From Pseudomonadota bacterium (lineage in GTDB: Bacteria; Pseudomonadota; Alphaproteobacteria; Sphingomonadales; Sphingomonadaceae), in contig JBCBZR010000011.1 of NCBI GenBank assembly GCA_039815245.1, forward strand, positions 3,656 to 67,655: a DNA stretch of 64,000 bases, read 5' to 3'. Both the position numbers and the translations under genes were made by a program. The notes under the pieces were generated by a model. That model ran no database searches. It saw only the letters and a list, made by a program, of their open reading frames with translations, and had not been told where the DNA came from. This document shows positions 16,039 to 61,269 of this stretch, in pieces (the stretch's first letter is position 1; every line of letters begins with the position of its first letter).

Positions 16039-16057
16039 CGTCCACAGCTAACTCAAG

Positions 16058-19078: not shown

Positions 19079-19119
19079 ACCGGTTCTGTCCGTGCCATCG
19101 TATGGGTGCATTGGACCAC

Positions 19120-19165: not shown

Positions 19166-19207
19166 GGTGGCTTTTAACTCAAATCTTTGAGTGCCTAACC
19201 CGTCAGA

Positions 19208-24655: not shown

Positions 24656-25468
24656 ATGGCGGCCACCACCGTCACGATGCAGCAATTGATTGAGGCCGGC
24701 GCACACTTCGGCCACCAGACCCACCGTTGGAACCCGCGTATGAAGCCGTATATCTTCGGCGCGCGCAACGGTGTTCACATCATCGACCTTTCGCAAACCG
24801 TGCCGCTGTTCGCGCGCGCGCTCGACTTCGTGGAAAGCACCGTCCGCGCAGGCGGCAAAGTTCTGTTCGTCGGCACCAAGCGTCAGGCCCAAGAGCCAAT
24901 CGCCGAAGCCGCACGCGCCTGTGGTCAGCACTTCGTCAACCATCGCTGGCTGGGCGGCATGCTCACCAACTGGAAGACGATCAGCGGTTCGATCAAGCGT
25001 TTGAAGACACTTGAAGAGCAGCTCTCAGGCGACACGAGCGGTCTGACCAAGAAAGAAGTCTTGAACCTCACGCGAGAGCGCGACAAACTGGAGCTTTCGC
25101 TCGGCGGTATTCGCGACATGGGCGGCGTGCCTGACGTGATGTTCGTGATTGACGCAAACAAGGAAGACCTCGCGATCAAGGAAGCGGCTGTGCTCGGTAT
25201 TCCGGTGATCGCGGTGCTTGATACCAATGTCGATCCGTCAAACATTGCTTTCCCGGTTCCGGGCAATGACGATGCGAGCCGTGCGGTTCGCCTCTATTGT
25301 CAGGCCATCGGCGATGCGGCGACCGCAGGTAAGGGTGGCGCAGTGCAGGATTCGGCTGAGGATTTCGGCGCGATGGATACGCCCCCGGCAGAGCCGACCG
25401 CTGAAGCTCCTGAAGCGGCTCCGGCCCCTGCCCCTGCTGCAGAAGCCACTCCGGCCGAAAGCGCCTGA
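24656..25468 (+). CDS. rpsB: 30S ribosomal protein S2
   Basis: The sequence reads [37 protein letters not shown] ribosome-binding site lies upstream of the ATG at 24656. Confidence 0.95.
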
Positions 25469-33232: not shown

Positions 33233-36001
33233 ATGGATCGATGCAAGGCAACGGGCAGCGCGCCTGTCATTTCAAGACAGTCCGGCGCTGTGAGGGGTAA
33301 GCTCACCCTGGCGCTGACCTGTAGCTCTATGCTGGCTGGCGTGCCTTATGCGGCGCTGGCTCAGGAAGAAGCGCCCGCCACCGGCGAAGCGCAGCCCGCC
33401 GCGCAGCCAACCCCGGCGCCCGCACCCGCGCCCGCACCAAGTGCCAATGTGATCCGCACGATCAGTGTCGCTGGGGCCGAGCGGCTCGAGCCGACCACAA
33501 TCCTCAGCTACATCCGCCTTCGCGTAGGGCAGGAATACACCTCGGCTGCCGCTGACCAGGCGCTTAAGGATCTTGGCGCGACCGAGCTGTTCAGCAATTC
33601 CTCGGTTCGCAATGATAACGGCAATGTCGTTATCACCGTGACTGAGAACCCCGTGATCAACCGCATCGTGCTGGAAGGCAATAAGCGGCTCGACAACGAC
33701 AAGATCTTGCCGGAAATCAAGCTTTCCCCGCGACAGATTTTCACCCGCTCCAAGGTCCGCGCTGATGTGGCTCGCATCATTGAGCTGTATAAGCGGCAGG
33801 GTCGTTTTGCTGCGACGGTTGAGCCGAAAATGGTGCAGCTGCCGCAGAACCGCGTCGATGTGGTGTTTGAGATCAGCGAGGGGCCCAAGTCCAAGGTTCG
33901 CCAGATCAACATTATCGGGAACGAGCAGTTCTCTGATGGCGATCTGCGCGGCGAAATGGTCACGAAACAGGCGCGTTTCACCCGCTTCTTCAGCTCAAAC
34001 ACCAGCTACGATCCAGATCGTCTGGCGTTTGACCAGCAAAAGCTGCGTCAGTTTTATCTGACCGAAGGCTATGCCGATTTCCGCGTTGTGTCCGCTGTCG
34101 CTGAGCTGACGCCGGACCAGAAAGACTTCATCATCACCTATGTGGTGGAAGAAGGCGAGCGCTACAAATTCGGCGATGTTGAGGTTGAAAGCCAGCTGCG
34201 CGATTTTGACGGCGATGCGCTGGCGGCCGGCCTCTCGATGAAGAGCGAAGACTGGTACAACGCCAAATCGGTTGAGGACACGGTGGAGAGCCTGTCCGAG
34301 CTGGCGGGCCGGTTCGGTTATGCGTTTGCCGATGTGCAGCCGCGCTTTAACCGCAACAAGGAAAGCCTGACGATGGACATCAAGTTTGTCCTGCGTCAGG
34401 CACCGCGCGTCTATGTTGAGCGGGTCGACGTGAACGGCAATACGCTGACACAGGACAAGGTGATCCGCCGCGAGTTTCGCCTTGCAGAAGGAGACGCGTT
34501 TAACTCACTTGGCGTTCAGCGCACCACCGCGCGCATCAACTCGCTGGGCTATTTTCAGGAAAACTTTGAGGTCAATCAGGTCGAAGGCTCCGCGCCGGAC
34601 CGGATCGTTCTTGAAGCCAACATCGAAGAGCAGCCAACCGGCGAATTGCAGTTCTCAGCGGGCTTCTCCTCGATTGAGCAGTTCATTCTGGCCGGCTCCA
34701 TCCGCCAGCGTAACTTCCGTGGGCGCGGGCAGACGATCGGGCTCAGCCTGAACTACTCGCAATTCTCCAGTCAGGCGCAGATCAGCTTTACAGAGCCGTA
34801 TGTGTTCGACCGGAACATTTCGGCCGGTTTCGATATCTTCCGCCGTGATTTCAATAACTTCAACCCGAACAATCGGGACTTTTCGCTGTTTGAACAGTCG
34901 ACGACCGGCATGAGCCTTCGTGTCGGTGTACCGCTGACCGAATACCTAAATCTGATCGCCAGCTATCGGCTGAACTACGATGAGGTTGATATCGATGAGG
35001 GGCAGTTTTTCCGCGATCTGGACGGAGACGGCATTGCGACATGCGATCCGATCCTGGCCGGGCGCTTCTTGTGCGATTCGCTGGGCAACCGGCTCAGCTC
35101 GATCGTTGGCGCCACACTCAGCTATAACACGCTTAACTCAGCCTTCCGACCGACACGCGGTGAACAGATTTCGCTGACCACCGAATTCGCCGGTCTTGGC
35201 GGCGATGTGCGCTATCTGCGCTTCCGCGGTAACGCGCGCAAATTCTGGGGTATCGGGAATTCGGGCTTCATCTTCTCGCTGTCAGCCGAGGGTGGCACGA
35301 TCCTTCCCTTCAGTGAGCGCAATGAGGAAGGGGTCGATGATGTCTTCCTGAATGACCGCTTCTTCCTGGGTGAGCCGCAAATCCGTGGCTTTGATATTCG
35401 CGGGGTTGGCCCGCGCGTGTTTACAGACCGCTATGTGCTCGATGAGTTTAACCGGCAGGAACTGGACGAAAACGGCTCCCCCATTATCGCCATTGCGGAG
35501 AACCGCCGTCAGCGTAACGATGTCGCGCTGGGTGGTCGAAACTATTACCTTGGTCGGGCAGAACTTGAAATTCCGCTCGGCAGCGGCGCGCGCGAGCTTG
35601 GGCTGCGCCCCTCTATCTTCCTGGATGTGGGCGCGCTTTGGGGGCTGGAGACGCCCGTTCTTCAAGACAATCCGGGCGGTATCCAGCTCACCGATGATGC
35701 GACCGGGCTGCCCTTGTTCAGCATTCCACCTGAGGGCGGCACGTGCGCCTCTTTCGGTCGGACCGCGACCACCGATCCGACTCAGCCAGACGGAACCCCG
35801 AACTGCACAGAGATTATTGGCAGTTCGAACATTCGCGAGGTCTTCCTCGGCAATTCACCCAGCCCCCGCATCGCGGCGGGTATCGGGGTAAACTGGAACT
35901 CTCCCTTTGGGCCGTTCCGCATCGATTTCGCTCAGATCATCCGCAAGGTTGAGGGCGATGACGACAAAACATTCACGTTCAACGTAGGAACACAGTTCTG
36001 A
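33233..36001 (+). CDS. bamA: Outer membrane protein assembly factor BamA
   Basis: It has POTRA repeats followed by a beta-barrel, and ends in the OMP signature FNVGTQF. The start is ambiguous: the ATG at 33233, or the GTG at 33290, which gives a cleaner signal peptide, RGKLTLALTCSSMLAGVPYAALA. Confidence 0.9.
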   Translation: MDRCKATGSAPVISRQSGAVRGKLTLALTCSSMLAGVPYAALAQEEAPATGEAQPAAQPTPAPAPAPAPSANVIRTISVAGAERLEPTTILSYIRLRVGQEYTSAAADQALKDLGATELFSNSSVRNDNGNVVITVTENPVINRIVLEGNKRLDNDKILPEIKLSPRQIFTRSKVRADVARIIELYKRQGRFAATVEPKMVQLPQNRVDVVFEISEGPKSKVRQINIIGNEQFSDGDLRGEMVTKQARFTRFFSSNTSYDPDRLAFDQQKLRQFYLTEGYADFRVVSAVAELTPDQKDFIITYVVEEGERYKFGDVEVESQLRDFDGDALAAGLSMKSEDWYNAKSVEDTVESLSELAGRFGYAFADVQPRFNRNKESLTMDIKFVLRQAPRVYVERVDVNGNTLTQDKVIRREFRLAEGDAFNSLGVQRTTARINSLGYFQENFEVNQVEGSAPDRIVLEANIEEQPTGELQFSAGFSSIEQFILAGSIRQRNFRGRGQTIGLSLNYSQFSSQAQISFTEPYVFDRNISAGFDIFRRDFNNFNPNNRDFSLFEQSTTGMSLRVGVPLTEYLNLIASYRLNYDEVDIDEGQFFRDLDGDGIATCDPILAGRFLCDSLGNRLSSIVGATLSYNTLNSAFRPTRGEQISLTTEFAGLGGDVRYLRFRGNARKFWGIGNSGFIFSLSAEGGTILPFSERNEEGVDDVFLNDRFFLGEPQIRGFDIRGVGPRVFTDRYVLDEFNRQELDENGSPIIAIAENRRQRNDVALGGRNYYLGRAELEIPLGSGARELGLRPSIFLDVGALWGLETPVLQDNPGGIQLTDDATGLPLFSIPPEGGTCASFGRTATTDPTQPDGTPNCTEIIGSSNIREVFLGNSPSPRIAAGIGVNWNSPFGPFRIDFAQIIRKVEGDDDKTFTFNVGTQF

Positions 36002-38862: not shown

Positions 38863-38940
38863 GGCGATCGTAGTTCAGTTGGTTAGAACGCCGGCTTGTG
38901 ATGCCGGAGGTCGCGGGTTCGAGTCCCGTCGATCGCCCCA
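38863..38940 (+). tRNA. tRNA-His (anticodon GTG) with genomically encoded G-1 and C73
   Basis: Folded by hand. G-1 precedes an acceptor stem that pairs GCGATCG with CGATCGC. The anticodon stem pairs CCGGC with GCCGG around the loop TTGTGAT. The T-arm is GCGGG-TTCGAGT-CCCGT. The discriminator is C and the CCA end is encoded. Confidence 0.95.
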
Positions 38941-43632: not shown

Positions 43633-44159
43633 TGCGCCCCGCTTATTTCATCCCACTGGCGCTGTTCGTCGCATTTGCTGCGCTGGCGGGCTTTATGCTG
43701 ACGCAGCCCAAGGACCAGTTTGTCGAGAGCCAGATGGTCGGCGAACCGCTGCCCGAATTCGCCTTGCGCGCGGCAACGGACAACCGGCCCGGCGTTTCCA
43801 TCAAAGACCTGCGCGATGGCAAGCCGAAGCTGCTCAACATCTGGGCAAGCTGGTGCGTGCCCTGCATCGCGGAGGCACCGCATCTGGAAACCTTGCAGGC
43901 GCGCGGTGTGGAAATTGTCGGCGTGGCGATCCGTGACAACCCGCAGAACGTCGCCGCGTTTCTGGCCAAGCACGGCAATCCCTACAGCCGGATTGGCGCG
44001 GATGATATCTCTGCGATCCAGCTGGAGCTTGGCTCTTCTGGGGTGCCAGAGACCTTTGTGATCGACGGGCAAGGGATCATTCGCCACCAGCACATCGGCG
44101 ATATTCGAGAGCGGGACGTGCCGATGTTGCTGCAAAAACTGGCGGAGGCCGGGGCGTGA
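43632..44159 (+). CDS. ccmG: Thiol:disulfide interchange protein DsbE/CcmG
   Basis: It has a TM anchor, the thioredoxin motif WASWCVPC, and GVPETFVIDG. Confidence 0.9.
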   Translation: MRPAYFIPLALFVAFAALAGFMLTQPKDQFVESQMVGEPLPEFALRAATDNRPGVSIKDLRDGKPKLLNIWASWCVPCIAEAPHLETLQARGVEIVGVAIRDNPQNVAAFLAKHGNPYSRIGADDISAIQLELGSSGVPETFVIDGQGIIRHQHIGDIRERDVPMLLQKLAEAGA

Positions 44160-44581
44160 TGCGCGCGTTTCTGACGTTGTTGATGGCCTTGGCCGCGCTG
44201 CCTGTCCTCGCCCAGTCCGGGCCGCCTGCGCCCTATGCTTACACGCAGTTGGAAGACCCCGCGCTGGAGGCAGAGGCCACCGCGCTGATGCACACGCTGC
44301 GTTGCCTGAAGTGCCAGTCGCAAAGCATTGCCGACAGCGATGCGCCGATGGCGGGCGATATGCGCCATCAGGTGCGCAGTCGCTTGGCAGCGGGTGAGAG
44401 CTCGGGTGAAATTCGCGCCTGGCTGATTAAGCGCTATGGCGATTATGTCAGCTATCAACCCGAAGTGAGCGCGACCACATGGCCGCTGTTTGCGATCCCC
44501 GCGCTCTTGCTGGCGATTGTTGCGCTGGTGCTGTTGCGCCGCCTTGGCCGCAAGCGGTCTGATGGGGGTGGTGCGGCGTGA
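44156..44581 (+). CDS. ccmH: Cytochrome c-type biogenesis protein CcmH (CycL)
   Basis: It has a signal peptide, the LRCxxC motif LRCLKCQSQSIADSDAP, and a C-terminal TM segment. Confidence 0.85.
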   Translation: MMRAFLTLLMALAALPVLAQSGPPAPYAYTQLEDPALEAEATALMHTLRCLKCQSQSIADSDAPMAGDMRHQVRSRLAAGESSGEIRAWLIKRYGDYVSYQPEVSATTWPLFAIPALLLAIVALVLLRRLGRKRSDGGGAA

Positions 44582-45225
44582 TGGGTTGGCTTGCCATTGT
44601 TGCGCTCGCCGGGATCGCCTTTGCCATCGCGGCGGTCGCGCTGCGCCTGCCCAAACAGGGCTGGGTGATGTTTGCCGCTGTCCTGCTGTTCGGCATGGCG
44701 GGCTACGCCTGGCTTGGGTCGCCCGGCCAACCGGGCAGTCCAAAGATGACACAGGCCAAGGAAACCCGGCTAGACGGTGAAGAGATGGTCGAAGCGCGCA
44801 GCGCTCTGTTTGAAGGAAATGGGGCAAAGCCGGACTATCTGGTGATGTCCGATGGCTTTGCGCGCCGTGGCCGGTTTGACGATGCGGCAAAGCTGCTGCG
44901 CTCTGGCCTGCGCGACAATCCGGACCATCTCGAAGGCTGGCTGGCGCTGGGCATGTCGCTGGTCGGTCATTCGGACGGATTTGTGACCCCCGCCGCCTCT
45001 TACGCCTATTCGCGCGCGCGCCAGATCGCCCCGCAGAACCCGGCGGCGGATTACTTCCTTGGCTTCTCCTATCTTCAGTCCGGGGAAATCGTCGCTGCGC
45101 GCAATGTCTGGAAAGGCCTGCTGGACCGCTCGCCCGAAGATGCGCCGTGGCGTGAGGAGCTGGAAGGGCGTGTCGCCCAATTGGATGACATGATCGCCCG
45201 CGCTCCGATGCTACAGGGGCAATAG
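44578..45225 (+). CDS. ccmI: c-type cytochrome biogenesis protein CcmI/CycH (TPR)
   Basis: It has two N-terminal TM segments followed by TPR-like repeats. It is the last gene of the ccm cluster and has a 4-nt overlap with ccmH. Confidence 0.7.
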
Positions 45226-45377
45226 AGCCACGCGGATATGACCAGCTTTCGTTCGATACGTCCAATTTGTTGCACCTGCGAAAGGCCAGTGATAAGCCCG
45301 CGCGCCTAACGCCAGACGGGCAGTACCTGCGAAGCGAAAAAGACGCGCTGTTGCATGACGGGAAATCCAGACCAAGC

Positions 45378-47318
45378 ATGAGCGAAACTGCCACACCCCC
45401 CGATGCCGCCCCGGCGCATCATCCCCCTTCAGGCGGGCAAGCGCACAGCGCGTCCAAGGCTGCGCTCGCCGTGGGTGCGATTGGGATCGTATTCGGCGAT
45501 ATCGGGACCAGCCCGCTTTACGCCTTTCGCGAGACCTTTGTTGGCCCGCATCCCCTAGCGCTGGATGCGCCGCATGTGCTGGGCGTCATCAGCCTGATCT
45601 TCTGGTCAATGACGCTGGTGGTCTCGATCCAGTATGTCTCCATTCTGATGCGCGCGGATAACAAGGGGCAGGGCGGCAGTCTGGCTCTGGTCGCGCTGAT
45701 CAGCCGCAGCATTTCCAAGTCGAAGTATGGCTGGATGGCGGTGCTGCTGGGCGTGTTTGCGACCTCGCTGTTCTATGGCGATTCGATGATCACGCCTGCC
45801 ATTTCCGTCCTCTCGGCGGTTGAGGGGCTGACCGTGGTGGATCCCGGCTTGCAGCGATACGTGATCCCCATCGCGCTCGCCTTACTCGTGTTCCTGTTCA
45901 TCCTGCAAAAGCGCGGCACAGCTAAAGTCGGGGCGCTGTTTGCGCCGGTGATGATCGTCTATTTCACAGTGATCGCGGCGCTGGGCCTCTGGCAAATCGT
46001 CAAGACCCCGGAAATTCTGTGGGCGCTCAACCCCTATCATGCGATGAATTTCTTCGTGCTCGATGGCGGGCTTGCGTTCTTGGCGCTTGGCAGCGTTGTG
46101 TTGGCGGTGACCGGTTCTGAGGCGCTGTATTCCGACATGGGCCATTTCGGGCGCGGGCCGATGCGGCTCAGCTGGTTCGGCTTTGTCATGCCGTGCCTGC
46201 TGCTCAACTATTTCGGCCAGGGCGCGATGATCATCGGCCTCCCGCCAGAGCAGGCCGCCCAAGCGATCCAGTCGCCGTTCTTTTTCCTCGCGGATGAGGA
46301 ATACCGCCTGCCGCTGGTCCTGCTCGCCACCGTGGCGACCTTTATTGCTAGTCAGGCGGTCATCTCCGGCGCGTTTTCGATCACGCATCAGGCGATCCAG
46401 ATGGGCTACATTCCGCGCCTCTCGATCCGTCACACGTCAGAGACGGAGGGCGGCCAGATTTACATCCCGGTGGTGAACTGGGCGCTGATGGTGGCGGTGA
46501 TCATTCTGGTGCTCACCTTCCAGAACTCCTCGAACCTTGCGAGCGCATATGGCATCGCAGTGACCGGCGCTGTCACCATCGACACGCTGCTGATGGCGGT
46601 GCTGTTTGTGGGCGTGTGGAAGTGGAAGTGGTGGTACGCCGCGCCCGTTGTGCTGCTGTTCCTGATCGTGGACGGAGCCTATTTCGCAGCTAACCTCACC
46701 AAGGTGCCGCAAGGCGGCTGGTTCCCGCTGCTCATCGGCTTCATCGCCTTCCTGTTGCTCACCACATGGTCGCGCGGGCGCAAGCTGATGCGCGAACGGA
46801 TGAGCGAACATGCGCTGCCGATGGAGATCTTCGCCAAGAGTGCGAAGAACTCCGCATTGCGCGTGCCGGGCACTGCGATCTTCATGGCGAGCCAGTCCTC
46901 TGGCGTCCCCTCCGCGCTGCTCCACAACATCAAGCACAACAAAGTGCTGCATGAGCGGGTGGTGATCCTGACGGTCGATATTCAGGACGTGCCCTATGTC
47001 GATCCCGCCGAGCGCTGCGAATATGTTGACATGGGCGACGGCTTTTATCGCGGCGTGCTGCATTACGGCTTTATGGAAGAGACCAATGTGCCCAAGGGGC
47101 TGGAGGGCATGGGCTTTTATTGCGGCGGCAATTTCGACATGATGCACACCAGCTTCTTCCTGAGCCGCCAGACGCTGCTCGCGAGTGACAAGCCCGGAAT
47201 GCCAATCTGGCGCGAGAAGATCTTTGCATGGATGCTGCGCAACGCGGCCAGCGCGATGGACTTCTTCAAGCTGCCCACAAACCGCGTGGTGGAGCTTGGG
47301 AGTCAGGTGGAGATTTAG
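45378..47318 (+). CDS. kup: KUP/HAK/KT potassium uptake transporter
   Basis: It has [15 protein letters not shown] and is a polytopic protein with a cytoplasmic C-terminal domain. I chose the internal ATG at 45378 as the start. Confidence 0.95.
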
Positions 47319-47363
47319 ACCTGTTTTTTTGGCAGACCTAATTTAGAGCGTTTAAGGCTAATG

Positions 47364-47392
47364 TTGAGTTATTGCAGTTTTTGCTGAATAAT
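47364..47392 (+). promoter_or_regulatory. Candidate sigma-70-type promoter of the islet operon
   Basis: TTGAGT (47364-47369), a 17-nt spacer, then AATAAT (47387-47392), all in a 32% GC intergenic stretch about 40 nt upstream of the first islet ORF. Confidence 0.35.
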
Positions 47393-47429
47393 ATTGTCCT
47401 AGCCAACATATTGTTGCTACGCGCCATGT

Positions 47430-47690
47430 ATGGAAATGAAGCGATGCACTAATTGCGGCAGCAGCGATCTAATCGAACGTGCATTCGAAATGGTCTGTAG
47501 ACACTGCGGTTCAAGCATGAGCATTACGCCGAGTGGCCACGAGGGCCAAACCATAGGGATAAGCGTGAATCACGATGTCCAAGTTCTTTTGGCAAGATGT
47601 GAAAGCGAGCCAGGCAATCGAGTGAGACTAGCGAATTTGGTTTTAGACCTTGATCCGTCGAACGTAGAAGTCCGCAAGTTCCTTAAGTGA
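47430..47690 (+). CDS. Small zinc-ribbon protein with a helical, TPR-like C-terminus; hypothetical
   Basis: It has CxxC-x13-CxxC (CTNCG...CRHCG) at the N-terminus, followed by LLARCESEPGNRVRLANLVLDLDPSNVEVRKFL. An alternative start is at 47436. It is the first gene of the islet. Confidence 0.55.
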   Translation: MEMKRCTNCGSSDLIERAFEMVCRHCGSSMSITPSGHEGQTIGISVNHDVQVLLARCESEPGNRVRLANLVLDLDPSNVEVRKFLK

Positions 47691-47699
47691 GGAGATGAT

Positions 47700-48329
47700 A
47701 TGAAAACATCTGCGATCGCCCGTGAGTACGGTTTTGACCAACCGAAGTTTGAGCGTTGGATTCAACAGAATTCAGATATCGCTTCTAAGCCCGCTATTGT
47801 TGGAGGACTTGCTATTAGCGACGCTGATGTTGAAAGCGCGGTGGCAGATTTTCAAGCTTTTTTAGATGAGCATGAGCGACTAGTCGCAGCAGAAAAGGCT
47901 GAAGCGAAGCAACAGGCCGAGCAAGCCGAAATTGAGGCTCAAAGGAAGCAACGCGCGTTGTCTTCTATGCTGATTACATCTGGTTTCAATTTTGATGGCT
48001 TTAAAATTACGAAATATTCGGGATACATATCTGGTGACGACGTCGTTCAAATTGATCGGGGAAGCCAAGGCTTCTTCAGTGATGTTACTGATGTGGGTGC
48101 AAGCCTGATGTCTTCTCTAGCTAAGATAAGGCGGAACGCTCTTATCGAACTGAAGGAAGCGGCGTACGAGCTTGGTTGTAATGCTGTGATTGGAGTTGAT
48201 TTCGACTATTTGACACTCGACCCAGAGACGGCGAATGCAGGTGGAGGCACTCTCTATTTGCCGTACGTGTTCGGTGTCACCGCTAATGGCAATGCGGTGG
48301 TGATCGAAGAAGCTAGTTCGACCAATTGA
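47700..48329 (+). CDS. YbjQ/DUF74 (UPF0145)-domain protein with an N-terminal extension and a coiled-coil linker
   Basis: A strong AGGAG lies 7-8 nt upstream. The C-terminal ~115 aa align by eye to E. coli YbjQ: LITSGFNFDGFKITKYSGYISGD...ALIELKEAAYELGCNAVIGVDFDY...GVTANGNAVVIE. The N-terminal ~60 aa are unassigned. Residues ~60-90 form an Ala/Glu/Lys/Gln coiled coil. Confidence 0.7.
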   Translation: MKTSAIAREYGFDQPKFERWIQQNSDIASKPAIVGGLAISDADVESAVADFQAFLDEHERLVAAEKAEAKQQAEQAEIEAQRKQRALSSMLITSGFNFDGFKITKYSGYISGDDVVQIDRGSQGFFSDVTDVGASLMSSLAKIRRNALIELKEAAYELGCNAVIGVDFDYLTLDPETANAGGGTLYLPYVFGVTANGNAVVIEEASSTN

Positions 48330-48379
48330 CTTCAAATTCATGAGTTCAGATCGACTTCGGTCTTTTGCTAATTTGGCTG

Positions 48380-49759
48380 TCACTCGCCCCCAATCACCGT
48401 AATCGCTCTCTGCCGTCCGTCCAGATAGCGCACGTTCTCGCCGTCGAAAAACGCGTCTTCCTCGGTGCGGAAATCCACCCTCTGGCCGCCCCATTCGGGC
48501 ACTGTGGCATAGCTGGTTAGCTCGATGGCCCACACAGTGTTGGCGCGCACGGGGAATTCGCCGCGCGGGTCTGGCTCCTGCTTGTCCCAAAACCCGATAG
48601 AGGGGCCTGCGCCGTGTCCATGGCTGCCGAGCGGGTGGGTGTAGATCGAGGGATCAAGCCCCGCTGCAATTGCTTCGGCGCGGGTTTTGGCGAGCACTTG
48701 GTTGCCTGTCAGCCCCACTTTGAAATTGCGCGTCAGGATGTCTTGCACGCGGTTTGAATTGGCAAAGCCTGCCGCAAGCCCGGCGGGCACCTTCGTCTCA
48801 CCGGGCTTCAACACATAGGCGAGGTGCTGGGTGTCCGTGTTGAGCCGCAGATAGGTTATGCCAAGGTCAGTCCACACAAGATCGCCCGGCTCAATCACGG
48901 TCTCGCCATAAAGCATCCCTTCAACGCCTTCGCGCTGTACGCCAAGGCTGGGGTGGAACCACGGCTTGAGGCCCAGCTCAGCGAGCCGCTCCCGATACCA
49001 CCATTGCACATCGGCACAGGTCGTAACGCCCGGTGTGATCACCTTGCGCGAAAGCGCTTCACCAATCAGCGCGTGCGCGATGCGAACCAGGCCGGGATAG
49101 ACCTCCATCTCAGACGGTATGCGGGTCTCCAGCCAGCGCAGGCTGAGCGCTTCACCTGAGACGATCCGTGCGCGCAGCTCTGGTGAAAGGCGCTCGCTCA
49201 TCATGCGGTATTGGCTCAGCGTCATGCCGTCGCCAAAGGCGGTGAGATCGGAGAAGTTGATCGCGATTTTCGCCGGGTTACGCTCGGCAATTATGTCCGC
49301 GACCGCCTGCCATTGATCGGGCTGCTCCGCGGGGTCCCATGCCGCACCGAATAGCCCGGCGAGGCCGTATCGGCTGACTGTCAGGCGTTCGATGGGCTTG
49401 CCTGCGCAATCGGCTTTGCAGGGATCATGAAACACCAGAATGGTGCGCCGCCGCGCGCTCATGCTTTTGCCATCAAGCATGGAGGCGGTGACGGGGTCTT
49501 CAAAGTATTCGCGGCTCATCAGCAGCCACAGGTCGACACCCTCGGCGCGCATGATTTGCGGGATGACGGTGTCGAGCCGCTCGGCCAGCACCCGGTCAAT
49601 CACCTCGGCGCGCTCGCGCAGCGGGAGGATTGTGGCGTAGGGCGATGCGTCGGGGTTGCCATCCGAGGTATCAGGCGCCTTCGCCAGCGCCGGGGCGGTC
49701 AGCGCCGCCAGCGTCATCACAAGTGCCGTGACCCATCCGATCGCGCGCATCATCATCAA
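48380..49759 (-). CDS. Secreted M24-family metallopeptidase (Xaa-Pro aminopeptidase-like)
   Basis: It has the signal peptide MMMMRAIGWVTALVMTLAALTAPALA. The pita-bread-fold motifs are DLVWTDLG, HPLGSHGHGAGP and WAIEL. Confidence 0.8.
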   Translation of the reverse strand: MMMMRAIGWVTALVMTLAALTAPALAKAPDTSDGNPDASPYATILPLRERAEVIDRVLAERLDTVIPQIMRAEGVDLWLLMSREYFEDPVTASMLDGKSMSARRRTILVFHDPCKADCAGKPIERLTVSRYGLAGLFGAAWDPAEQPDQWQAVADIIAERNPAKIAINFSDLTAFGDGMTLSQYRMMSERLSPELRARIVSGEALSLRWLETRIPSEMEVYPGLVRIAHALIGEALSRKVITPGVTTCADVQWWYRERLAELGLKPWFHPSLGVQREGVEGMLYGETVIEPGDLVWTDLGITYLRLNTDTQHLAYVLKPGETKVPAGLAAGFANSNRVQDILTRNFKVGLTGNQVLAKTRAEAIAAGLDPSIYTHPLGSHGHGAGPSIGFWDKQEPDPRGEFPVRANTVWAIELTSYATVPEWGGQRVDFRTEEDAFFDGENVRYLDGRQRAITVIGGE

Positions 49760-50448
49760 CTCCCGGTTGGTGGCTCATCCTTGAGCACGTCTTCGGCATC
49801 CTCAAGGCTCAGCCCGTGCTTGAGCAGCATCGGAATTTGCGAGGCGCTGAAGAGGAAAGTCAGCACCAGAAACGCCCATGTCTTGGTCGTCAACCAACCG
49901 CCAAAGCTTAAGCTCAGGCGCAGCGCCTCGTTAAGCGCGGCGAGGGCGAAGAAGAAGAACCCCCAATTGCGCGAAAGCTTCATCCAGCCCGCCTCGTCCA
50001 CCCCGTCAAACGCGGCTTCGAGCAGCCATTGCAGCAGCGCCTTGCCCTTGAACCACCCGATCAGCAGCACACTGCCAAAGAAGATGTAGAGCGCGGTCGG
50101 CTTGATCTGGACCCAGAACTCATCGCGCAACAGGATCGTCAAACTGCCAAACCCGATGATCAGCACTGTGGAGAGCACGAGCATTTTCGAGACGGCGCCC
50201 GTCAGCCATTTCGACAGACCCAGCGCAATGATCGCCGCGATCATGAATGCAGCGGTGCTGGTGATCACGGCGTTGAGCGTGCCTGAAATGGCATTGGGGC
50301 TGTTAACGTCCGGCGCGTTGAACCAGTAGACGCCGAGGAATATTAGCAGCGGGCCGTAATCGACCGCTGTGCTCAACCATGAGGCGGAGGCGGATTTGGG
50401 GGTCTCGCTGGTCTTGGGGGTCTCGGGTGTCGGTTGGGGCTCGTTCAT
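49756..50448 (-). CDS. yciB: Intracellular septation protein A (YciB/IspZ family)
   Basis: It has five TM segments, with DYGPLLIFLGVYWF and KPTALYIFFGSVLL. It lies directly downstream of ftsY. Confidence 0.8.
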   Translation of the reverse strand: MNEPQPTPETPKTSETPKSASASWLSTAVDYGPLLIFLGVYWFNAPDVNSPNAISGTLNAVITSTAAFMIAAIIALGLSKWLTGAVSKMLVLSTVLIIGFGSLTILLRDEFWVQIKPTALYIFFGSVLLIGWFKGKALLQWLLEAAFDGVDEAGWMKLSRNWGFFFFALAALNEALRLSLSFGGWLTTKTWAFLVLTFLFSASQIPMLLKHGLSLEDAEDVLKDEPPTGS

Positions 50449-51386
50449 CAGGCCACTCCTGCAATCACGCGCGCGACAAGGTCCGGGTCAAAGGGGCGCA
50501 GGTCTTCCATTTTCTCTCCCACACCAATCGCGTGGATTGGCAGGCCATATTGCTCAGCTGCCGCCACCAGCACGCCGCCGCGCGCGGTGCCGTCCAGCTT
50601 GGTCATGATCAGCCCGGTGACGCCTGCGACCTCTTGAAACACATCAATCTGGCTCAGCGCGTTCTGACCGTTCGTGGCATCAAGCACCAGCACCACATCG
50701 TGCGGTGCGGCTTCGTTCAGGCGGCCCAGAACGCGGCGGATTTTCGCCAGTTCGTCCATCAATTCGCGCTTGTTCTGGAGCCGCCCGGCGGTGTCGACCA
50801 CTAGCGCGTCAATCCCGGTATCGGTTGCTTGCTTGACCGCATCAAACACGATGCTCGCCGGGTCGCCGCCTTCGGGTCCGCGCACAATGTCCACGCCCGC
50901 ACGCCCGGCCCACGTCGCCAGCTGCCCGATGGCTGCGGCGCGGAACGTGTCTCCAGCGGCGAGGAGGACGCCGTAATCGTCCTCGGTAAACAGATGCGCG
51001 AGCTTGGCTATGGTGGTCGTCTTGCCAGAGCCATTGACGCCGATCACCAGGATGACTTGCGGGCGTGGGAAGGCAGTGATCTCAAGCGGTTTGGCGACCG
51101 GGCGCAGGATCTCTGCGATTTCCTCAGCGACCGCTTCCTTCAATTCGCGCTCGGTGATCTGCTCGCCAAAGCGCTTTTCTGACAGGCGCGTGCGGATGCG
51201 CCCTGCGGCTTTGGGACCGAGGTCTGAGACGATCAGCGCGTCTTCGATGTCATCAAGGGTCGCATCGGAGAGCTTTCCGCCAGAGAGGCCTGCGAGGTTT
51301 CCGGATAGGCGTTCTGAGGTCTTGCGAAAGCCGCCGAGCAGCTTGTCGCTCCAGCTGGCTTGCGCAGTGTTGGGTGTGTCGCTCAA
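50448..51386 (-). CDS. ftsY: Signal recognition particle receptor FtsY
   Basis: The GTPase motifs are GVNGSGKTTT, DTAGR and TKLDG. It is a short form with no acidic A-domain. Confidence 0.95.
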   Translation of the reverse strand: MSDTPNTAQASWSDKLLGGFRKTSERLSGNLAGLSGGKLSDATLDDIEDALIVSDLGPKAAGRIRTRLSEKRFGEQITERELKEAVAEEIAEILRPVAKPLEITAFPRPQVILVIGVNGSGKTTTIAKLAHLFTEDDYGVLLAAGDTFRAAAIGQLATWAGRAGVDIVRGPEGGDPASIVFDAVKQATDTGIDALVVDTAGRLQNKRELMDELAKIRRVLGRLNEAAPHDVVLVLDATNGQNALSQIDVFQEVAGVTGLIMTKLDGTARGGVLVAAAEQYGLPIHAIGVGEKMEDLRPFDPDLVARVIAGVA

Positions 51387-52576
51387 TGGAGCAGACCTTT
51401 CTCGAGAGTGGTGGGCGTGACGCTGGCGATGGTGCCCGGTGGCACTTCATCGGGCAGCGCGACCCGTGCATAATGCGGCGTGTAGCCGGTCTGGTCGCGT
51501 TCGGCGAGGACGCTGTGCGGCGCGCCGATCAGGCTGGTGAGCCATGCGGCGCGGCGCTTCGAGACCGCTTGGCGCAGATCAGCCGCGCGCGCCTTGATGA
51601 CAGCGCGATCCAATTGCGGCATCCGCGCAGCAGGCGTGCCGGGGCGCGGGCTGTACGGGAAGATATGGCCGTGCACGACATCGAGCTCATGGATGATGGA
51701 GATGTTGTCGCCGTGGTGCGCATCGGTTTCGGTCGGGAAGCCCGCAATGAGGTCAGCGCCGATCGCGATGTCGGACCGCGCGGTTTTCAGGCGCTGCACA
51801 AGGTCTATCGCATCGCGGCGCAGATGCCGGCGCTTCATGCGCTTTAGAATGAGGTCAGCACCATGCTGCAGCGATAGGTGCAGGTGCGGCATGACGCGCG
51901 GTTCGTGGGCGATCAGATCGAACAGCAGCGGGTCAATCTCAACCCCATCGACCGAGGAAAGGCGCAGGCGGCCAAGTTGATGAAACTCATCTGTGATAGA
52001 CCTAACCAGATCGCCCAAACGCGGCATGTTGGAAATATCATGTCCCCAACTGGTCAGATCGACACCCGTGAGCACAATTTCCTTAGCACCCAGATCGAGG
52101 TGATGCTCCACTTCGCGCAAGGCCTCTGCGATGCTCAAAGACCGGCTGACCCCGCGCCCCTGCGGGATGACGCAAAAGGTGCAGGCGTGGTCGCAACCAT
52201 TTTGCACTCCGATAAAGGCGCGGGTGCGTGTGGGCGGGGGTGGTGCTTCGGCGACCGGTGCATTCCACGCGCGCGGATCGAGTTTGGCGGTGTTGGCGAT
52301 AATCCCGTCAACCTCGGGCATCGCCGCAATCTGGTCGCGCTCAATATCAGCCGCGCACCCGGTCACGATCAAGCGCGCGTCAGGCCGCTCGCGGCGCGCG
52401 CGGCGGATTGCTTGCCGGGTCTGGCGCACCGCTTCGCTGGTCACCGCGCAGGAATTGACCACCACCACATCGCCCGCATCCGCGAGCATCGCCTTCATCC
52501 GCTCGCTCTCGGCGATGTTGAGGCGGCAGCCGAGCGAAATGACGTCGGGTGATGGGGTGGGGGAGGGCGTGCTCAC
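51383..52576 (-). CDS. mtaB: tRNA methylthiotransferase MtaB (radical SAM)
   Basis: It has the N-terminal UPF0004 region GCRLNIAESE, the radical SAM motif GCDHACTFC, and a TRAM-like C-terminus. I prefer the GTG at 52576 as the start (GTGA overlap with the dapF stop). Confidence 0.85.
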   Translation of the reverse strand: MSTPSPTPSPDVISLGCRLNIAESERMKAMLADAGDVVVVNSCAVTSEAVRQTRQAIRRARRERPDARLIVTGCAADIERDQIAAMPEVDGIIANTAKLDPRAWNAPVAEAPPPPTRTRAFIGVQNGCDHACTFCVIPQGRGVSRSLSIAEALREVEHHLDLGAKEIVLTGVDLTSWGHDISNMPRLGDLVRSITDEFHQLGRLRLSSVDGVEIDPLLFDLIAHEPRVMPHLHLSLQHGADLILKRMKRRHLRRDAIDLVQRLKTARSDIAIGADLIAGFPTETDAHHGDNISIIHELDVVHGHIFPYSPRPGTPAARMPQLDRAVIKARAADLRQAVSKRRAAWLTSLIGAPHSVLAERDQTGYTPHYARVALPDEVPPGTIASVTPTTLEKGLLH

Positions 52577-53492: not shown

Positions 53493-55238
53493 TTACTGCC
53501 CCGCGCGGCGCAAGAATTCGTGCGGATCGCTGATACGCGGCTTGGGCGCTGGGACTGCGTTGTCCTCTTTGGGGACCACTGTGACCGCCGAAAGACGCGG
53601 GCTGCTGTCGTTGAGCAGGCCTTGTTCGCGCAGCCGTTCACGCACGCGTTCAGCGGGTTCCGGGCGGCCATAGAGATAGCCTTGCCCCTTCAACTCGCCC
53701 ATGCCTTGCAGGGCGGTGAGGATCTGTTCGTCCTCAATCCCTTCGCAGGTGATGGGCAGGTTGAGCCCGCGGCCCAGCGAGACAATCGCATCGACAAGCT
53801 GTGAATGGCCATCAACATTGTTGCTGAGCTCACTGATAAAGCTGCGGTCTATCTTGAGCCGGTCAAACGGCAGCGAGCGCAATTGATCGAGGCTTGAATA
53901 GCCGGTGCCAAAGTCATCGAGGCTGATCCGCACACCCTGATTGCGCAGTGAGGTGATCATGGAGCGCACCATACTGATATTTTCGTGAAGGCAGCTTTCC
54001 GTGATTTCAATATCGAGACGCTGCGGAGGGAAGTTGGACTGGACCAATCGCTTCAGCAGCTTTTGCGCAAACCACGGATCGCGCATTTGCACCGGTGAGA
54101 TGTTGATCGAGAGGGTAAGCTCATCGTTCCATTCGCTCGCATCGGCAAAGGCGCGCGCCATTAGGAGGTCTGACAGCTCTGTAATGCAGCCAATCTCTTC
54201 AGCCACCGGGATGAACACTTCCGGGCTAACGAGGCCAAGGCTCGGTGATCTCCAGCGCGCGAGCATTTCAAAGCCGACGAGCCTGCCCGTCTCAACGTCA
54301 ACCTGCTGCTCGTAGAAAGGTACAAACTCGCTGTTGGCAAGGCCGCGGCGAATGCCTGCTTCCAGCTCGTTGCGAAAGCGCAGTTCGTTTTCCATGCTTG
54401 GCTCGAACCAGAAAAAGCGATTTTTGCCCTGTTTTTTGGCCTGATACATCGCGATGTCGGCGTGGTGCATCAGCATTTCCGCATCGCCCAGCGCCGGGTT
54501 GAAACCGTGCTCGTCATGGTCGCTGGCGAGGCCAATGGACATGGTCAGTTCAACCGAGGTGAATTCAGCCTCGAATGTGGCGGCCATGGATTCGTACAGG
54601 CGGATCACAATGTCATCGACCCGCTCCGGCAAAGCGGGGTCATAGGCCATGGCAAAGGCAAATTCGTCGCCGCCCAGCCGCGCCAGCGCCGCTTCGGCAG
54701 GAAGCTCTGCTTTGACCCGTCGGGCGAATTCGCACAGCACTTTGTCGCCGCTGGAATGCCCTTGCATATCGTTGATCTGTTTGAAGTTATCAAGGTCAAC
54801 CATGACATAGGCAATTGCCTGCGCGCGCTCATGCGCGGACAGGCGCAGCCTGTTGGTCGCGGCCAGCATGGACCGACGATTGAGGCACCCTGTCAGTGGA
54901 TCGAGCTCGGACAATTCGCGCGCCTGGCGCTCTGCGCGTTGGCGGGTCTCGATCTCTTCGCGCAGCTGGCGATAGCGCCGCCACCCGAATATGACGAGGG
55001 CGATGTTGAGCAGGAAGATGCTGACAAGGATATTGTCTGGTGCCCTGCCATCATAGAGGGCGGAGCGCACAACATCCGGCAGCACTGCGCCGCCTGCGCC
55101 GACGAACATAATGATCGCCGCGACAGCAATGCCAAGAGCAACAAGGTCCCGCTCTGCAGGCCCATACTTGCTCTGTTCTTCCGGTTCCACCAAGGTTTCT
55201 CCATTCGCCAACAAGTGACGCATCCTCGCTTGTTGCAA
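53493..55238 (-). CDS. Membrane-anchored GGDEF-EAL protein (diguanylate cyclase/phosphodiesterase)
   Basis: It has two N-terminal TM segments and an intact GGDEF (RLGGDEFAF). The EAL domain has an EML variant (GFEMLARW) but retains N (INIS), EITE, DDFGTGYSS and KIDRSF. Confidence 0.9.
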   Translation of the reverse strand: MQQARMRHLLANGETLVEPEEQSKYGPAERDLVALGIAVAAIIMFVGAGGAVLPDVVRSALYDGRAPDNILVSIFLLNIALVIFGWRRYRQLREEIETRQRAERQARELSELDPLTGCLNRRSMLAATNRLRLSAHERAQAIAYVMVDLDNFKQINDMQGHSSGDKVLCEFARRVKAELPAEAALARLGGDEFAFAMAYDPALPERVDDIVIRLYESMAATFEAEFTSVELTMSIGLASDHDEHGFNPALGDAEMLMHHADIAMYQAKKQGKNRFFWFEPSMENELRFRNELEAGIRRGLANSEFVPFYEQQVDVETGRLVGFEMLARWRSPSLGLVSPEVFIPVAEEIGCITELSDLLMARAFADASEWNDELTLSINISPVQMRDPWFAQKLLKRLVQSNFPPQRLDIEITESCLHENISMVRSMITSLRNQGVRISLDDFGTGYSSLDQLRSLPFDRLKIDRSFISELSNNVDGHSQLVDAIVSLGRGLNLPITCEGIEDEQILTALQGMGELKGQGYLYGRPEPAERVRERLREQGLLNDSSPRLSAVTVVPKEDNAVPAPKPRISDPHEFLRRAGQ

Positions 55239-55371
55239 AGTTCAGCAACAGATGAGGCAAAGTGCTGAAAATCGAGTTAATTGTATTGCGCAGTACAAAA
55301 GGCGGGCATGTCTTGTAGCCGCGCAATCAACGTATTAGGCGCGACAGGCAGATAGAGGAGCCCCCGCCGCC

Positions 55372-55794
55372 ATGAGCGAACCCGACAAAGCCTATTGGCT
55401 GATGAAGTCCGAACCGTTCAAATACGGTTGGGATGATCTTGTCGCCGAGGAAGAGGGCGTGTGGGATGGTGTGCGCAATCATCTGGCCAAGAACAATCTT
55501 CAGGCGATGAAAGTGGGCGATGAGGCGTTTTTCTACCACTCGCGAGAGGGGCTGGAGATCGTTGGGATTGCGCAGATCACGGTCGACGGCATCCTCGACC
55601 CGACAGACGAAACCGGCAAGTGGGCCGCGGTGAAGATCAAGCCCAAGCGCAAGTTTAATAACCCCGTGACGCTAAAACAGATCAAGGCCGAGCCCAAGCT
55701 GGCTGAGTGCGAATTGGTGCGTCTGTCGCGGTTGTCCGTCGCCAAGATCACGCCTGAGGAATGGGATGTGATCTGCGCGATGTCGGAAGGGTAG
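55372..55794 (+). CDS. EVE domain-containing protein
   Basis: The sequence YWLMKSEPFKYGWDDL...WDGVRNHLAKNNL..MKVGDEAFFYHS is typical of standalone EVE/PUA-like proteins. Confidence 0.85.
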   Translation: MSEPDKAYWLMKSEPFKYGWDDLVAEEEGVWDGVRNHLAKNNLQAMKVGDEAFFYHSREGLEIVGIAQITVDGILDPTDETGKWAAVKIKPKRKFNNPVTLKQIKAEPKLAECELVRLSRLSVAKITPEEWDVICAMSEG

Positions 55795-59519: not shown

Positions 59520-60128
59520 ATGCTGACTTTGCCTAACATCCTGACGATGAGCCGTATCCTTGCGCTGCCGCTGCTGGGGTTTTTTCTGTGGTGGCCGCAT
59601 TGGGCACTTGGCTATGCGATCGGCTTTGCGCTGTATTGCCTGATCGCGATTACCGATTTCTTCGACGGCTATCTCGCCCGCGCGCAAGGCACTGTATCAA
59701 AGCTTGGCATCTTTCTGGACCCCATTGCAGACAAGATCATGGTGGCGACAGTTATTCTGGTGCTGACCGCGCAAGGCTATTTGCGCGGGCCTTATGTTGG
59801 GGACTTCCATGTGATCGCCGGTCTGATCATCCTGATCCGCGAGATTGCGGTGAGCGGCCTGCGCGAATTTCTCGGCGGAATTCAGGTTTCTGTGCCTGTT
59901 TCAAAGCTCGCCAAGTGGAAGACGGCGTTCCAGCTGATCGCGCTGGGTGCGCTGATCGGGGGCGGGGCGCTGCATGGCCAGCCGTGTCAGGAGCTTGGCA
60001 ACAGCTGCAAGACAGTCGCGGAAAGCTGGGCGCATGTGATCGGTCTAACGACTCTGTGGACCGCCGCCGCGCTGACCTGCATCACCGGTTGGGATTATCT
60101 GCGCGTGGGCCTCAAACACATGGATTAG
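59520..60128 (+). CDS. pgsA: CDP-diacylglycerol--glycerol-3-phosphate 3-phosphatidyltransferase
   Basis: It begins LPNILTMSRI. The CDP-alcohol motif is DFFDGYLARAQGTVSKLGIFLDPIADK. Confidence 0.9.
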   Translation: MLTLPNILTMSRILALPLLGFFLWWPHWALGYAIGFALYCLIAITDFFDGYLARAQGTVSKLGIFLDPIADKIMVATVILVLTAQGYLRGPYVGDFHVIAGLIILIREIAVSGLREFLGGIQVSVPVSKLAKWKTAFQLIALGALIGGGALHGQPCQELGNSCKTVAESWAHVIGLTTLWTAAALTCITGWDYLRVGLKHMD

Positions 60129-60333
60129 AATCGCCATTGATCGGTTGAGACATGCAACCGTTGCAACGCTTCATCGCAGTTTGTAAACTTTTTACCCATG
60201 CAAAGCGTCGTTTCGGTGATGCTGTTAATCTGAGCGACAGGACGCGCTGGCAGGTCTCGCTTCAACGCGGTGGCAACCCTTTTCCCCTAAACCCCCAAAA
60301 AAAAGCGCCGCAAATAACGATGAGGAGTCGTAG

Positions 60334-61269
60334 ATGATGATCGATCTTAAGAGCCGTGTGGCGATCAGCGCTGCGCTGATTGCGCTTGTATCGCCCGCCG
60401 CACTGGTCGCCCAAAACAGTGACATGCAGCCCGTGCGTGTATCCGATGCCATGAAGCAGATGGAACAGCGCGGTGAGCCGATTACGGTGACGGGTGATAT
60501 CCCCACCGATCTGGAAGGCCTGCCTCAGGGACCCGACGTGGAAGGCTTCGTGTCCGCACGTCAGGGCCAGCGGGTTCAAGTGACTCAAGTGGGCGGCCAG
60601 CAGACCATCGTGGCGGTCGGCCCCGCGACTGAGATCAAAGCATCCGGCGGCTTTCTGGGACTGGCGCGTGATGCTCTGACCGCTGATCAACTGGTCAATG
60701 GTATTCCGGTCAAGATTGAGACGGTTGAATGGAACAACCGCCTGATCGCCACCGAAGTGCGGATGAAGGCCAAAGACCTCAAAACCGCCCGGATGATCCA
60801 GACCGGCACCGATCAGCGCTTTGGCATGAACGAGGCAGGCATCGCCAAGAATGAAGCCGCCACTGAGGCCCTGCGTGGGCGCTTTGGCGATATCGACAAG
60901 TACAACCTTGCCGCGACGACTAATGTCTATTTCGACACAGGCAAATACTCGCTGTCGCCCGAAGCGCGCAGCACGCTGTGCGCGGCTGCACAGCAGGCGC
61001 AGGCGAATGAGAACGCGCTCATTCTTGTGGTTGGCTACACCGATTCAACCGGCAGCTATGAGATCAATCAGGAGCTCAGCGAAAAGCGTGCCGGGCGGGT
61101 GACGAACTTCCTTCAGCAGCAGTGCGGCTGGAAGCCTTATCGCATGCTCACCCCCACCGGCATGGCAACCGCTGACCCGGCGGCAGACAACGCGACACCC
61201 GAAGGCAAAGCGCAAAATCGCCGCGTGGCTGTGAACGTGCTGGTGAGCAAGAGCCTCGACGGGCTGTAA
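60334..61269 (+). CDS. OmpA-family (OmpA_C peptidoglycan-binding) protein
   Basis: It has a signal peptide and the C-terminal OmpA-like domain FDTGKYSLSPE...VVGYTDSTGSYEINQELSEKRA...NRRVAVNVL. The N-terminal domain is unassigned. Confidence 0.8.
   Translation: MMIDLKSRVAISAALIALVSPAALVAQNSDMQPVRVSDAMKQMEQRGEPITVTGDIPTDLEGLPQGPDVEGFVSARQGQRVQVTQVGGQQTIVAVGPATEIKASGGFLGLARDALTADQLVNGIPVKIETVEWNNRLIATEVRMKAKDLKTARMIQTGTDQRFGMNEAGIAKNEAATEALRGRFGDIDKYNLAATTNVYFDTGKYSLSPEARSTLCAAAQQAQANENALILVVGYTDSTGSYEINQELSEKRAGRVTNFLQQQCGWKPYRMLTPTGMATADPAADNATPEGKAQNRRVAVNVLVSKSLDGL

Follow-up and report, generated by a model that had tools for sequence, protein, structure and literature searches.

The islet at positions 47,319 to 48,379 (forward strand) of a 64,000-nucleotide (nt) stretch of contig JBCBZR010000011.1, from a Sphingomonadales bacterium (assembly GCA_039815245.1), is foreign, horizontally acquired DNA that carries two genes. 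The whole 64-kb stretch is called the window here. The first open reading frame (ORF1) encodes an 86-amino-acid (aa) protein with a zinc ribbon and a TPR-like unit, and the second (ORF2) encodes a 209-aa protein that ends in a YbjQ/UPF0145 domain. These two genes very probably form a foreign, conserved pair whose products function together. The islet is tentatively read as a reduced but intact copy of an operon that is conserved and mobile, with products that would act together as a complex. A role in genetic conflict or defence is proposed for it with slightly less assurance.

The islet occupies the 1,061 nt between the stop codon of kup (K_trans and K_trans_C domains; 45,267-47,318, forward strand, stop TAG) and the stop codon of an M24 peptidase gene (48,380-49,759, reverse strand), which converges with kup on it. 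Its G+C content is 0.464 (46.4%) versus 0.610 (61.0%) for the window. This value is the minimum of all 1,061-nt segments (mean 0.609, standard deviation about 0.03) and lies roughly 5 standard deviations below the mean. The four 1-kb segments with the most deviant tetranucleotide usage in the 64 kb all overlap the islet, and the G+C content at third codon positions (GC3) is 0.52 in ORF1 and 0.43 in ORF2 versus 0.80 in kup and 0.75 in the peptidase gene. An earlier reading of the letters alone, referred to here as the original prediction, had delimited the islet and its two flanking genes correctly and had called the segment compositionally foreign from hand counts of G+C on 60-nt lines; all seven counts are exact, and computed G+C, tetranucleotide usage, and GC3 bear the claim out. 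Other 400-nt dips below a G+C of 0.54 occur in the window at 15,539-16,061, 18,443-19,237, 24,257-24,756, 34,611-35,010, 53,734-54,220, 55,094-55,596, and 59,992-60,517, all of them far milder than that of the islet.

The best relatives of the peptidase, at 70-83% identity, come from Erythrobacter, Altererythrobacter, Qipengyuania, and Porphyrobacter, which places the window in the Erythrobacteraceae. Three relatives from this family have ccmH-TPR-kup to one side of the junction and peptidase-ispA-ftsY-radical-SAM-dapF to the other, in the same order as the window. The ORF1/ORF2 pair is absent from the kup/peptidase junction of all three, and nucleotide homology to them ends exactly at the kup stop (47,318) and resumes at about 48,390. 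The relatives carry other cargo at the junction: a 77-aa ORF (L085:6375-6773), a Methyltransf_21 gene with an unknown 301-aa gene (L086:6363-8363), and a DUF389 gene (L087:6366-7719). Because the cargo varies among relatives, the pair is a lineage-specific insertion at a variable site, and comparison of these loci indicates that the kup/M24-peptidase junction is a recurrent insertion hot spot in the Erythrobacteraceae. The original prediction had surrounded the islet with core genes for more than 10 kb on each side; synteny with the three relatives upholds this for 44,019-51,992 only.

The hallmarks of an integrase-mediated island or prophage (an integrase or transposase, a tRNA/att target, direct repeats) are missing at the islet, as had been foreseen. 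Home-made profiles found no recombinase in the 64-kb window, and the islet is not flanked by meaningful repeats. The nearest tRNA gene, tRNA-His (GTG) at 38,864-38,940, lies 8.5 kb away; it is the sole tRNA gene in the 37-58 kb section of the window and is not associated with the islet. No integrase or repeats were seen at the junctions of the three relatives, and an Rfam search returned no match. A common insertion with the Porphyrobacter copy of the cassette (75% identity) was rejected, as that copy sits at another site, within a restriction-modification/IS/integrase island.

ORF1 (47,430-47,690) and ORF2 (47,700-48,329) lie on the same strand with a gap of 9 nt, and they alone are substantial, the remaining islet ORFs of at least 30 aa being short overlapping frames. 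Both this layout and the AGGAG Shine-Dalgarno sequence of ORF2 had been read correctly at the outset. The AGGAG (47,690-47,694, forward strand, read from the sequence) overlaps the ORF1 TGA and stands 5 nt before the ORF2 ATG, an arrangement that makes translational coupling of the two genes possible.

ORF2 relatives are rare and patchy, with 118 hits in about 185,000 species genomes (one genome per species), and they span at least five bacterial phyla. Their hosts include Alpha- and Betaproteobacteria, many Actinomycetota, Lactobacillaceae, Clostridia, Negativicutes, Chloroflexota, and Bacteroidota, as well as one archaeal metagenome-assembled genome. In about 73 of 84 loci, the ORF2 homologue is preceded on its own strand by an ORF1 homologue that ends 8-45 nt before it, and this short spacing is conserved across loci. 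Homologues of the two genes are thus neighbours in unrelated genomes: about 85% of roughly 95 loci, drawn from Proteobacteria, Actinomycetota, Bacillota, Chloroflexota, and Bacteroidota, have both genes intact, side by side, and in the same orientation. Taken overall, the pair is present in at least six bacterial phyla and in prophages. The divergence of ORF1 and that of ORF2 are correlated (Mantel r = 0.40, p = 0.001), which together with pairing across phyla establishes co-inheritance. The pair also has a lower G+C content than its flanks in 57 of 61 loci (median -7 points, p = 7e-11).

Eleven of the 84 loci have no strong ORF1 match: seven hold an ORF1 pseudogene, two are cut by a contig end, one encodes a chimera (L073), and one has no recognisable ORF1 partner (L074). 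P0286 is a natural in-frame fusion of ORF1 and ORF2, the product of a single sporadic stop loss. ORF1 and ORF2 are in the same frame in the window too, but programmed read-through between them was rejected, because the frames coincide in 26 of 73 loci, as expected by chance. At a Specibacter cremeus locus (L050), about 2.1 kb separates ORF1 (1118-1378) from a headless YbjQ-type gene (from about 3505), which suggests that an insertion split the cassette. A Variovorax locus carries an extra 86-aa gene (L002:5473-5733), which shares 4 nt with the beginning of the ORF1 homologue and matches nothing in Pfam or PADLOC.

ORF2 is composed of an N-terminal excisionase/MerR-like winged-helix head (residues 1-47; 47,700-47,840), a long charged helix or coiled-coil spacer (residues 48-88; 47,841-47,963), and a YbjQ/UPF0145 domain with a subfamily-specific C-terminal extension (residues 89-209 and the stop codon; 47,964-48,329), all on the forward strand. 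The head is defined by AlphaFold2 and Foldseek, the spacer by AlphaFold2 and alignment, and the C-terminal part by PF01906 and PDB matches. YbjQ_1 (PF01906) aligns to residues 90-174 (E 1.4e-10; 42.1 bits versus a Pfam cut-off of 23), which vindicates the earlier description of an extended YbjQ/DUF74 protein. ORF2 also matches PDB entries 1vr4, 2gtc, and 1y2i, each deposited with five chains, at E-values of about 3e-6. An AlphaFold2 model built with 32 homologues gives residues 1-88 a predicted local distance difference test score (pLDDT) above 90 and shows a helix-turn-helix (HTH), a β-hairpin, and then a single helix that spans residues 41-88. The HTH and β-hairpin in this model make up a winged-helix fold.

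The three parts of ORF2 evolve at very different rates. Mean pairwise identity across 64 loci is 27% in the head, 24% in the linker, and 72% in the YbjQ-type domain, and the latter value holds across phyla. The YbjQ-type domain of the family contains 54 invariant columns, all of which are kept by the ORF2 of the window, and the charged linker varies in length from 34 to 63 residues. A Clostridiaceae locus (L073:3175-4344) encodes a 389-aa ORF in which a Fic domain (HPFNDGNGRTAR) is followed by the same charged linker and a YbjQ-type domain. This domain is C-terminally truncated, stopping before the 'LPYVFGVTANGNAV' end, and the zinc-ribbon partner is absent. This single case may represent a swap of the head domain or a chimera in decay.

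The C-terminus of ORF2 shares the 'R..A..ELKE.A...G.NAV.GVD.DY' core with YbjQ/UPF0145/DUF74 proteins. However, canonical YbjQ members are single-domain proteins of about 105 aa (100-110 aa) that are often chromosomal, whereas ORF2 has 209 aa, belongs to a mobile cassette, and has a near-obligate zinc-ribbon partner gene. Its 88-residue extension of winged-helix head and long charged helix is conserved within the subfamily. Motifs specific to the subfamily also set it apart, namely YSGYISGDD and the extended 'LDPET..GGTLYLPYVFGVTANGNAV' C-terminus.

ORF1 (forward strand) encodes a C4 zinc ribbon of the TFIIB/Rrn7 type (C6, C9, C23, and C26), a variable linker, and a C-terminal helical unit that resembles consensus TPR proteins in the PDB. 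A word-index homologue search with ORF1 returned nothing. The family, whose members have about 85 aa, emerged from a scan of the regions upstream of ORF2 homologues and from an exhaustive phmmer run that yielded 84 cluster representatives among 1.8 billion proteins. In the family alignments the Cys quartet is invariant and a 'YA.L.LDIDP.N..A..YL' segment is conserved; the ORF1 of the window retains the quartet and the invariant leucines. PF11781 is matched by 22 of 66 family members. The zinc-ribbon mini-protein of the original prediction therefore stands at the level of the family, whereas the ribbon in the ORF1 of the window, taken alone, falls below the Pfam cut-off.

Some ORF1 variants are fused to TM2 domains or to a single transmembrane helix. 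An approximately 180-aa variant (L078:2876-3406 and L082:10652-11194; P0250 and P0268) has a C-terminal extension that contains 'GCYIATAVYGSYDCPxVWxLRRYRD' and has no Pfam match; in L078 and L082, two loci that do score for ORF1, it lies downstream of the YbjQ-type gene, not upstream. ORF1 also weakly matches PHROGs 4852 and 8436, two families of unknown function. Near the cassette of another locus, a 309-aa phage protein (L091:9885-10811, reverse strand) matches both of these families, with the phrog_8436 match spanning its first 32 residues, which hints that zinc ribbons like that of ORF1 occur on further phage proteins.

An optional third gene emerged from clustering of the neighbours. Its product has about 370-400 aa with Band_7_1 (SPFH) and SHOCT domains, and the gene immediately precedes ORF1 or immediately follows ORF2. 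A profile search places it in about 28 of 95 loci, where it is tightly linked and in several cases decaying; in L058 it is 2.4 kb away and not adjacent. All of the closest relatives of the window cassette have it (P0002, 73%; P0007, 66%; the Porphyrobacter type, 75%; L095; and L096). No SPFH-SHOCT gene occurs anywhere in the 64-kb window; its cassette is therefore a reduced form with two genes, the one that predominates overall across phyla. The original prediction of a self-contained two-gene operon thus holds for the conserved pair, but the closest relatives add SPFH-SHOCT, and the form in the window is reduced. A remnant of the SPFH-SHOCT gene in the 111-nt leader of the islet was rejected, because alignment scores equal those of shuffled controls and no protein-level signal exists. 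In Porphyrobacter-type loci, the SPFH-SHOCT gene is cut to its last 64-75 codons (L005:1-315 and L097:130-324), with an apparent transposase C-terminus, identified by eye, just upstream of the remnant. The ORF2 of this type lacks the N-terminal head (176 aa), and this degraded allele is present on 24 metagenomic contigs.

The cassette occupies cargo-type locations. Seven of 2.9 million viral contigs in IMG/VR carry the complete pair, with the ORF1 homologue directly upstream on the same strand in all seven. An Anaerovibrio lipolyticus prophage has the pair inside a head-tail module confirmed by PHROGs, where it separates the major tail gene from the tape-measure gene and is encoded on the opposite strand. 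A second viral contig has the pair just upstream of the small terminase gene, and a third has the three-gene form beside three serine integrases. Among bacterial loci, the pair block of the Variovorax locus (L002) stands between HEPN-RES and AIPR/KAP NTPase genes, that of Sphingomonas panacisoli is near a PIN toxin, Rap1a, and an integrase, and the Porphyrobacter-like loci have Mrr, an HsdM fragment, IS3, and an integrase nearby. Mrr is also near the pair in L102, and an integrase and a resolvase are near it in L095. Most copies are bare islets like that of the window. Phages and plasmids were rejected as the residence of the pair, since GenBank phages gave no match and plasmids hold only distant single-domain YbjQ proteins, without the pair.

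The immediate neighbours of the pair are heterogeneous. Within two gene positions on either side of the first 49 loci, 145 proteins fall into 117 Pfam families, almost none of which recur. Roughly 12-14 of these 145 proteins match defence models, including type I, II, and IV restriction-modification, AbiU, PbeA, LeoBC, MzaE, and PDC candidates, while most neighbourhoods are unrelated to defence. An association with defence genes is borne out to the extent of these matches, but the enrichment is modest and non-specific and comes with no background control.

A conflict role is favoured because a variable head is joined to a conserved core, the pair is AT-rich, its spread across phyla is patchy, and it occupies moron sites. 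Like phage morons and two-gene abortive-infection (Abi) or superinfection-exclusion cassettes, it is small and AT-rich and may be self-transcribed. It also resembles them in lying on the opposite strand in prophage late operons, in occupying variable hot spots, and in sometimes neighbouring restriction, Abi, or toxin genes. It differs from them in that it matches nothing in PADLOC-DB v2 and contains no recognisable effector enzyme or pore.

The mechanism proposed for this role is built on the domain architecture. ORF2 probably oligomerises through its conserved YbjQ-type domain, whose solved relatives crystallise as five chains, and the oligomer would present its fast-evolving winged-helix heads on charged stalks that differ in length. 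ORF1 would serve as a small adaptor or regulator, with its TPR-like unit contacting the YbjQ core and its zinc ribbon contacting a further partner. The zinc ribbon and the winged-helix head would thus be the variable, outward-facing parts of the complex. Its partner or location may be membrane-proximal in other lineages, as suggested by the transmembrane-anchored ORF1 variants, the linked SPFH-SHOCT scaffold, and the analogy to the Bacillus subtilis protein YdjI. The heads would detect an invader or a disturbance, with the conserved core carrying out the response or serving as its scaffold. The module would ride as cargo on prophages and islands and confer phage exclusion or abortive-infection-like protection.

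Several observations weigh against this reading. The pair is absent from 50,697 GenBank phage genomes, and just seven viral contigs in 2.9 million are positive. A recombinase or transposase is near about 12% of loci, a lower bound given the low sensitivity of the home-made profiles. The modest enrichment of defence genes includes no recurrent partner. Neither ORF1, ORF2, nor the extra Variovorax gene matches any model in PADLOC-DB v2.0.0, in line with the original prediction, which had not recognised the pair as any named defence family, and the SPFH-SHOCT protein has no match there either. No catalytic effector domain is recognisable in the proteins. As Rosetta-stone evidence the fusion is weak, given one stop-loss case and no enrichment of a shared frame. 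The window copy lacks the SPFH gene of its closest relatives and might thus be a remnant in decay, although both of its ORFs are intact. Modelled with AlphaFold from a single sequence, ORF1 gives a structure too poor to use, and the ORF2 model is poor over the YbjQ part (pLDDT about 40) and unusable there. The head has a mean net charge of -2.3, and this acidity is unusual for a DNA binder.

The pair may instead be an envelope- or membrane-stress module, a sub-membrane scaffold like PspA-YdjGHI (SamGHI) that stabilises or monitors the membrane and that mobile elements carry as a general fitness factor, not against phages. This reading is unlikely, and it draws on the membrane links of the cassette, namely the SPFH-SHOCT gene of its closest relatives and the ORF1 variants with TM2 or transmembrane anchors. 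In B. subtilis, the Band_7_1 (SPFH) protein YdjI works with the membrane proteins YdjG and YdjH, which bring it to the membrane (PMC8581546), and YdjG bears zinc ribbons (PMC11237479). SHOCT most often partners Band_7_1 and is also associated with zinc ribbons and TM2 (PMC3581485). The system described here likewise couples a Band_7_1 protein, in this case with SHOCT, to a zinc-ribbon protein that has membrane-anchored variants. However, PspA, TPM (YdjH), and other Psp components are not among the 25 most recurrent of the 117 neighbour families. ORF1 is an 86-aa zinc ribbon-TPR protein, whereas the two zinc ribbons of YdjG belong to a large membrane protein, and a YbjQ-type partner is not mentioned in PMC8581546, PMC11237479, or PMC3581485. 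The SPFH gene is optional here, with about 70% of loci, the window included, lacking it, and the rare, patchy, AT-rich, prophage-moron pattern is more typical of conflict genes.

A pair of transcription regulators is an improbable explanation. ORF2 would then be a MerR/excisionase-like DNA binder oligomerised by its YbjQ domain, ORF1 would be its co-factor, and the two would regulate genes of the host or of mobile elements, or else the directionality of recombination. The fold of the head invites this explanation. Foldseek matches it in the PDB to BldC, RacA, CarH, pSK1 Par, Xis/RdfS, and small-terminase DNA-binding domains, and in BFVD to phage excisionase and HTH proteins. The top 11 PDB matches (BldC and RacA) reach a probability of 0.98-1.00, with weak E-values of 0.007-0.1. 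RacA and pSK1 Par also share the layout of a winged HTH followed by a coiled coil or long helix, and integrases stand beside the cassette in some loci. ORF2 differs from RacA, Par, Xis, and BldC in its YbjQ C-terminus and its acidic, poorly conserved head, and the similarity rests on E-values of 0.007 or worse. DNA binding is uncertain for a head that is, on average, acidic; conserved basic positions are limited to K2, K4, and K30, and no Pfam HTH family matches the head. A cursory comparison of eight upstream regions by eye found no conserved operator or motif. Moreover, the neighbours are heterogeneous, with none consistently available for regulation next door, and most loci are without a recombinase.

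The signals around the two genes bear on whether the window copy is still in use. The AT-rich leader (47,319-47,429, forward strand, 111 nt) contains the promoter-like string TTGAGT-17-AATAAT at 47,364-47,392. The string is present as the original prediction had reported, but as a sigma-70 promoter it is no more than putative, as such matches are no more frequent than chance (1 found versus 1.6 expected in shuffles). The leader resembles none of the regions upstream of related cassettes. RNA folding predicts a weak hairpin, AGAUCG-ACUU-CGGUCU followed by UUUUG (48,349-48,368, forward strand), within the 50 nt that separate ORF2 from the stop codon of the convergent peptidase gene. This hairpin is tentatively a possible weak terminator; it falls below the criteria of the terminator scanner, which found no canonical terminator in the islet.

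A truncated leftover of the three-gene module with no current function would also fit a promoter at chance level and the missing SPFH-SHOCT gene, and related copies do decay in Porphyrobacter (SPFH truncated, ORF2 headless), in Arthrobacter, and at other loci. This explanation is nonetheless improbable, marginally more so than a regulator pair. Both ORFs of the window are full length, the invariant ORF2 residues and the ORF1 Cys quartet and leucines are kept, the Shine-Dalgarno sequence and spacing are intact, and two-gene versions are the majority form across phyla.

A toxin-antitoxin or addiction module that stabilises its carrier DNA was among the possibilities raised in the original prediction, and it is now very unlikely. 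Like type II systems, the pair is a compact operon of two seemingly translationally coupled genes, it sits on mobile or variable DNA, and one of its partners is HTH-like, as are many antitoxins; toxin-antitoxin genes also neighbour several loci. However, Pfam, NCBIfam, and PADLOC show no similarity of either protein to a known toxin or antitoxin. With 72% identity across phyla, the YbjQ core is also conserved far beyond what is typical of toxin-antitoxin proteins, and a read-through fusion of ORF1 and ORF2 is tolerated. Seven Arthrobacter-group species have kept ORF2 intact although the adjoining ORF1 has decayed to a pseudogene, so that ORF1 is not an indispensable antitoxin for ORF2. These loci (L022, L025, L030, L033, L042, L043, and L048; genera Arthrobacter, Pseudarthrobacter, and Paenarthrobacter) have an ORF1 remnant with stop codons about 400 nt upstream of a full-length ORF2, and the upstream neighbour in L042 and L048 appears vWA-TerF-like from upstream translations, not from Pfam. 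An ORF1 toxin with ORF2 as an orphan antitoxin may be compatible with the pseudogenes.

Binding of or resistance to heavy metals, as in the database label 'heavy metal-binding domain-containing protein' of ORF2 homologues and in the Pfam description of PF01906 as 'putative heavy-metal-binding', is scarcely credible even with the Cys4 site of ORF1: a full-text literature search found no experiment that backs the label, which we take to be a structural-genomics guess, no metal-resistance or transport families recur among the 145 neighbours, the Cys4 site is a structural zinc ribbon, and the adjacency to kup is an accident of insertion, as relatives carry other cargo there.

All of the domains in this system are known, while their combination and mobile behaviour appear to be undescribed. 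A full-text literature search for YbjQ, DUF74, UPF0145, and PF01906, and for SPFH/SHOCT with anti-phage terms, returned no description of the pairing. YbjQ/UPF0145 is a widespread domain with crystal structures (1VR4, 2GTC, and 1Y2I), and we know of no function assigned to the fold in about two decades. One conserved YbjQ subfamily moves between phyla with a dedicated zinc ribbon/TPR partner and often with an SPFH-SHOCT protein, and a 'heavy metal-binding' annotation thereby becomes a defined system of two to three genes in about 0.9-2 kb.

If the cassette is protective, it would be mechanistically unfamiliar, with no nuclease, NTPase, or other recognisable enzyme, and it would link SPFH scaffolds to mobile-element conflict. 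The broadest form of the favoured reading is a new mobile immune or stress class in which a YbjQ pentamer forms the executive core, the variable heads act as sensors, and an SPFH scaffold ties the complex to the membrane. This form is doubtful at present. Were it true, it would provide the first biological role for the UPF0145/YbjQ fold.

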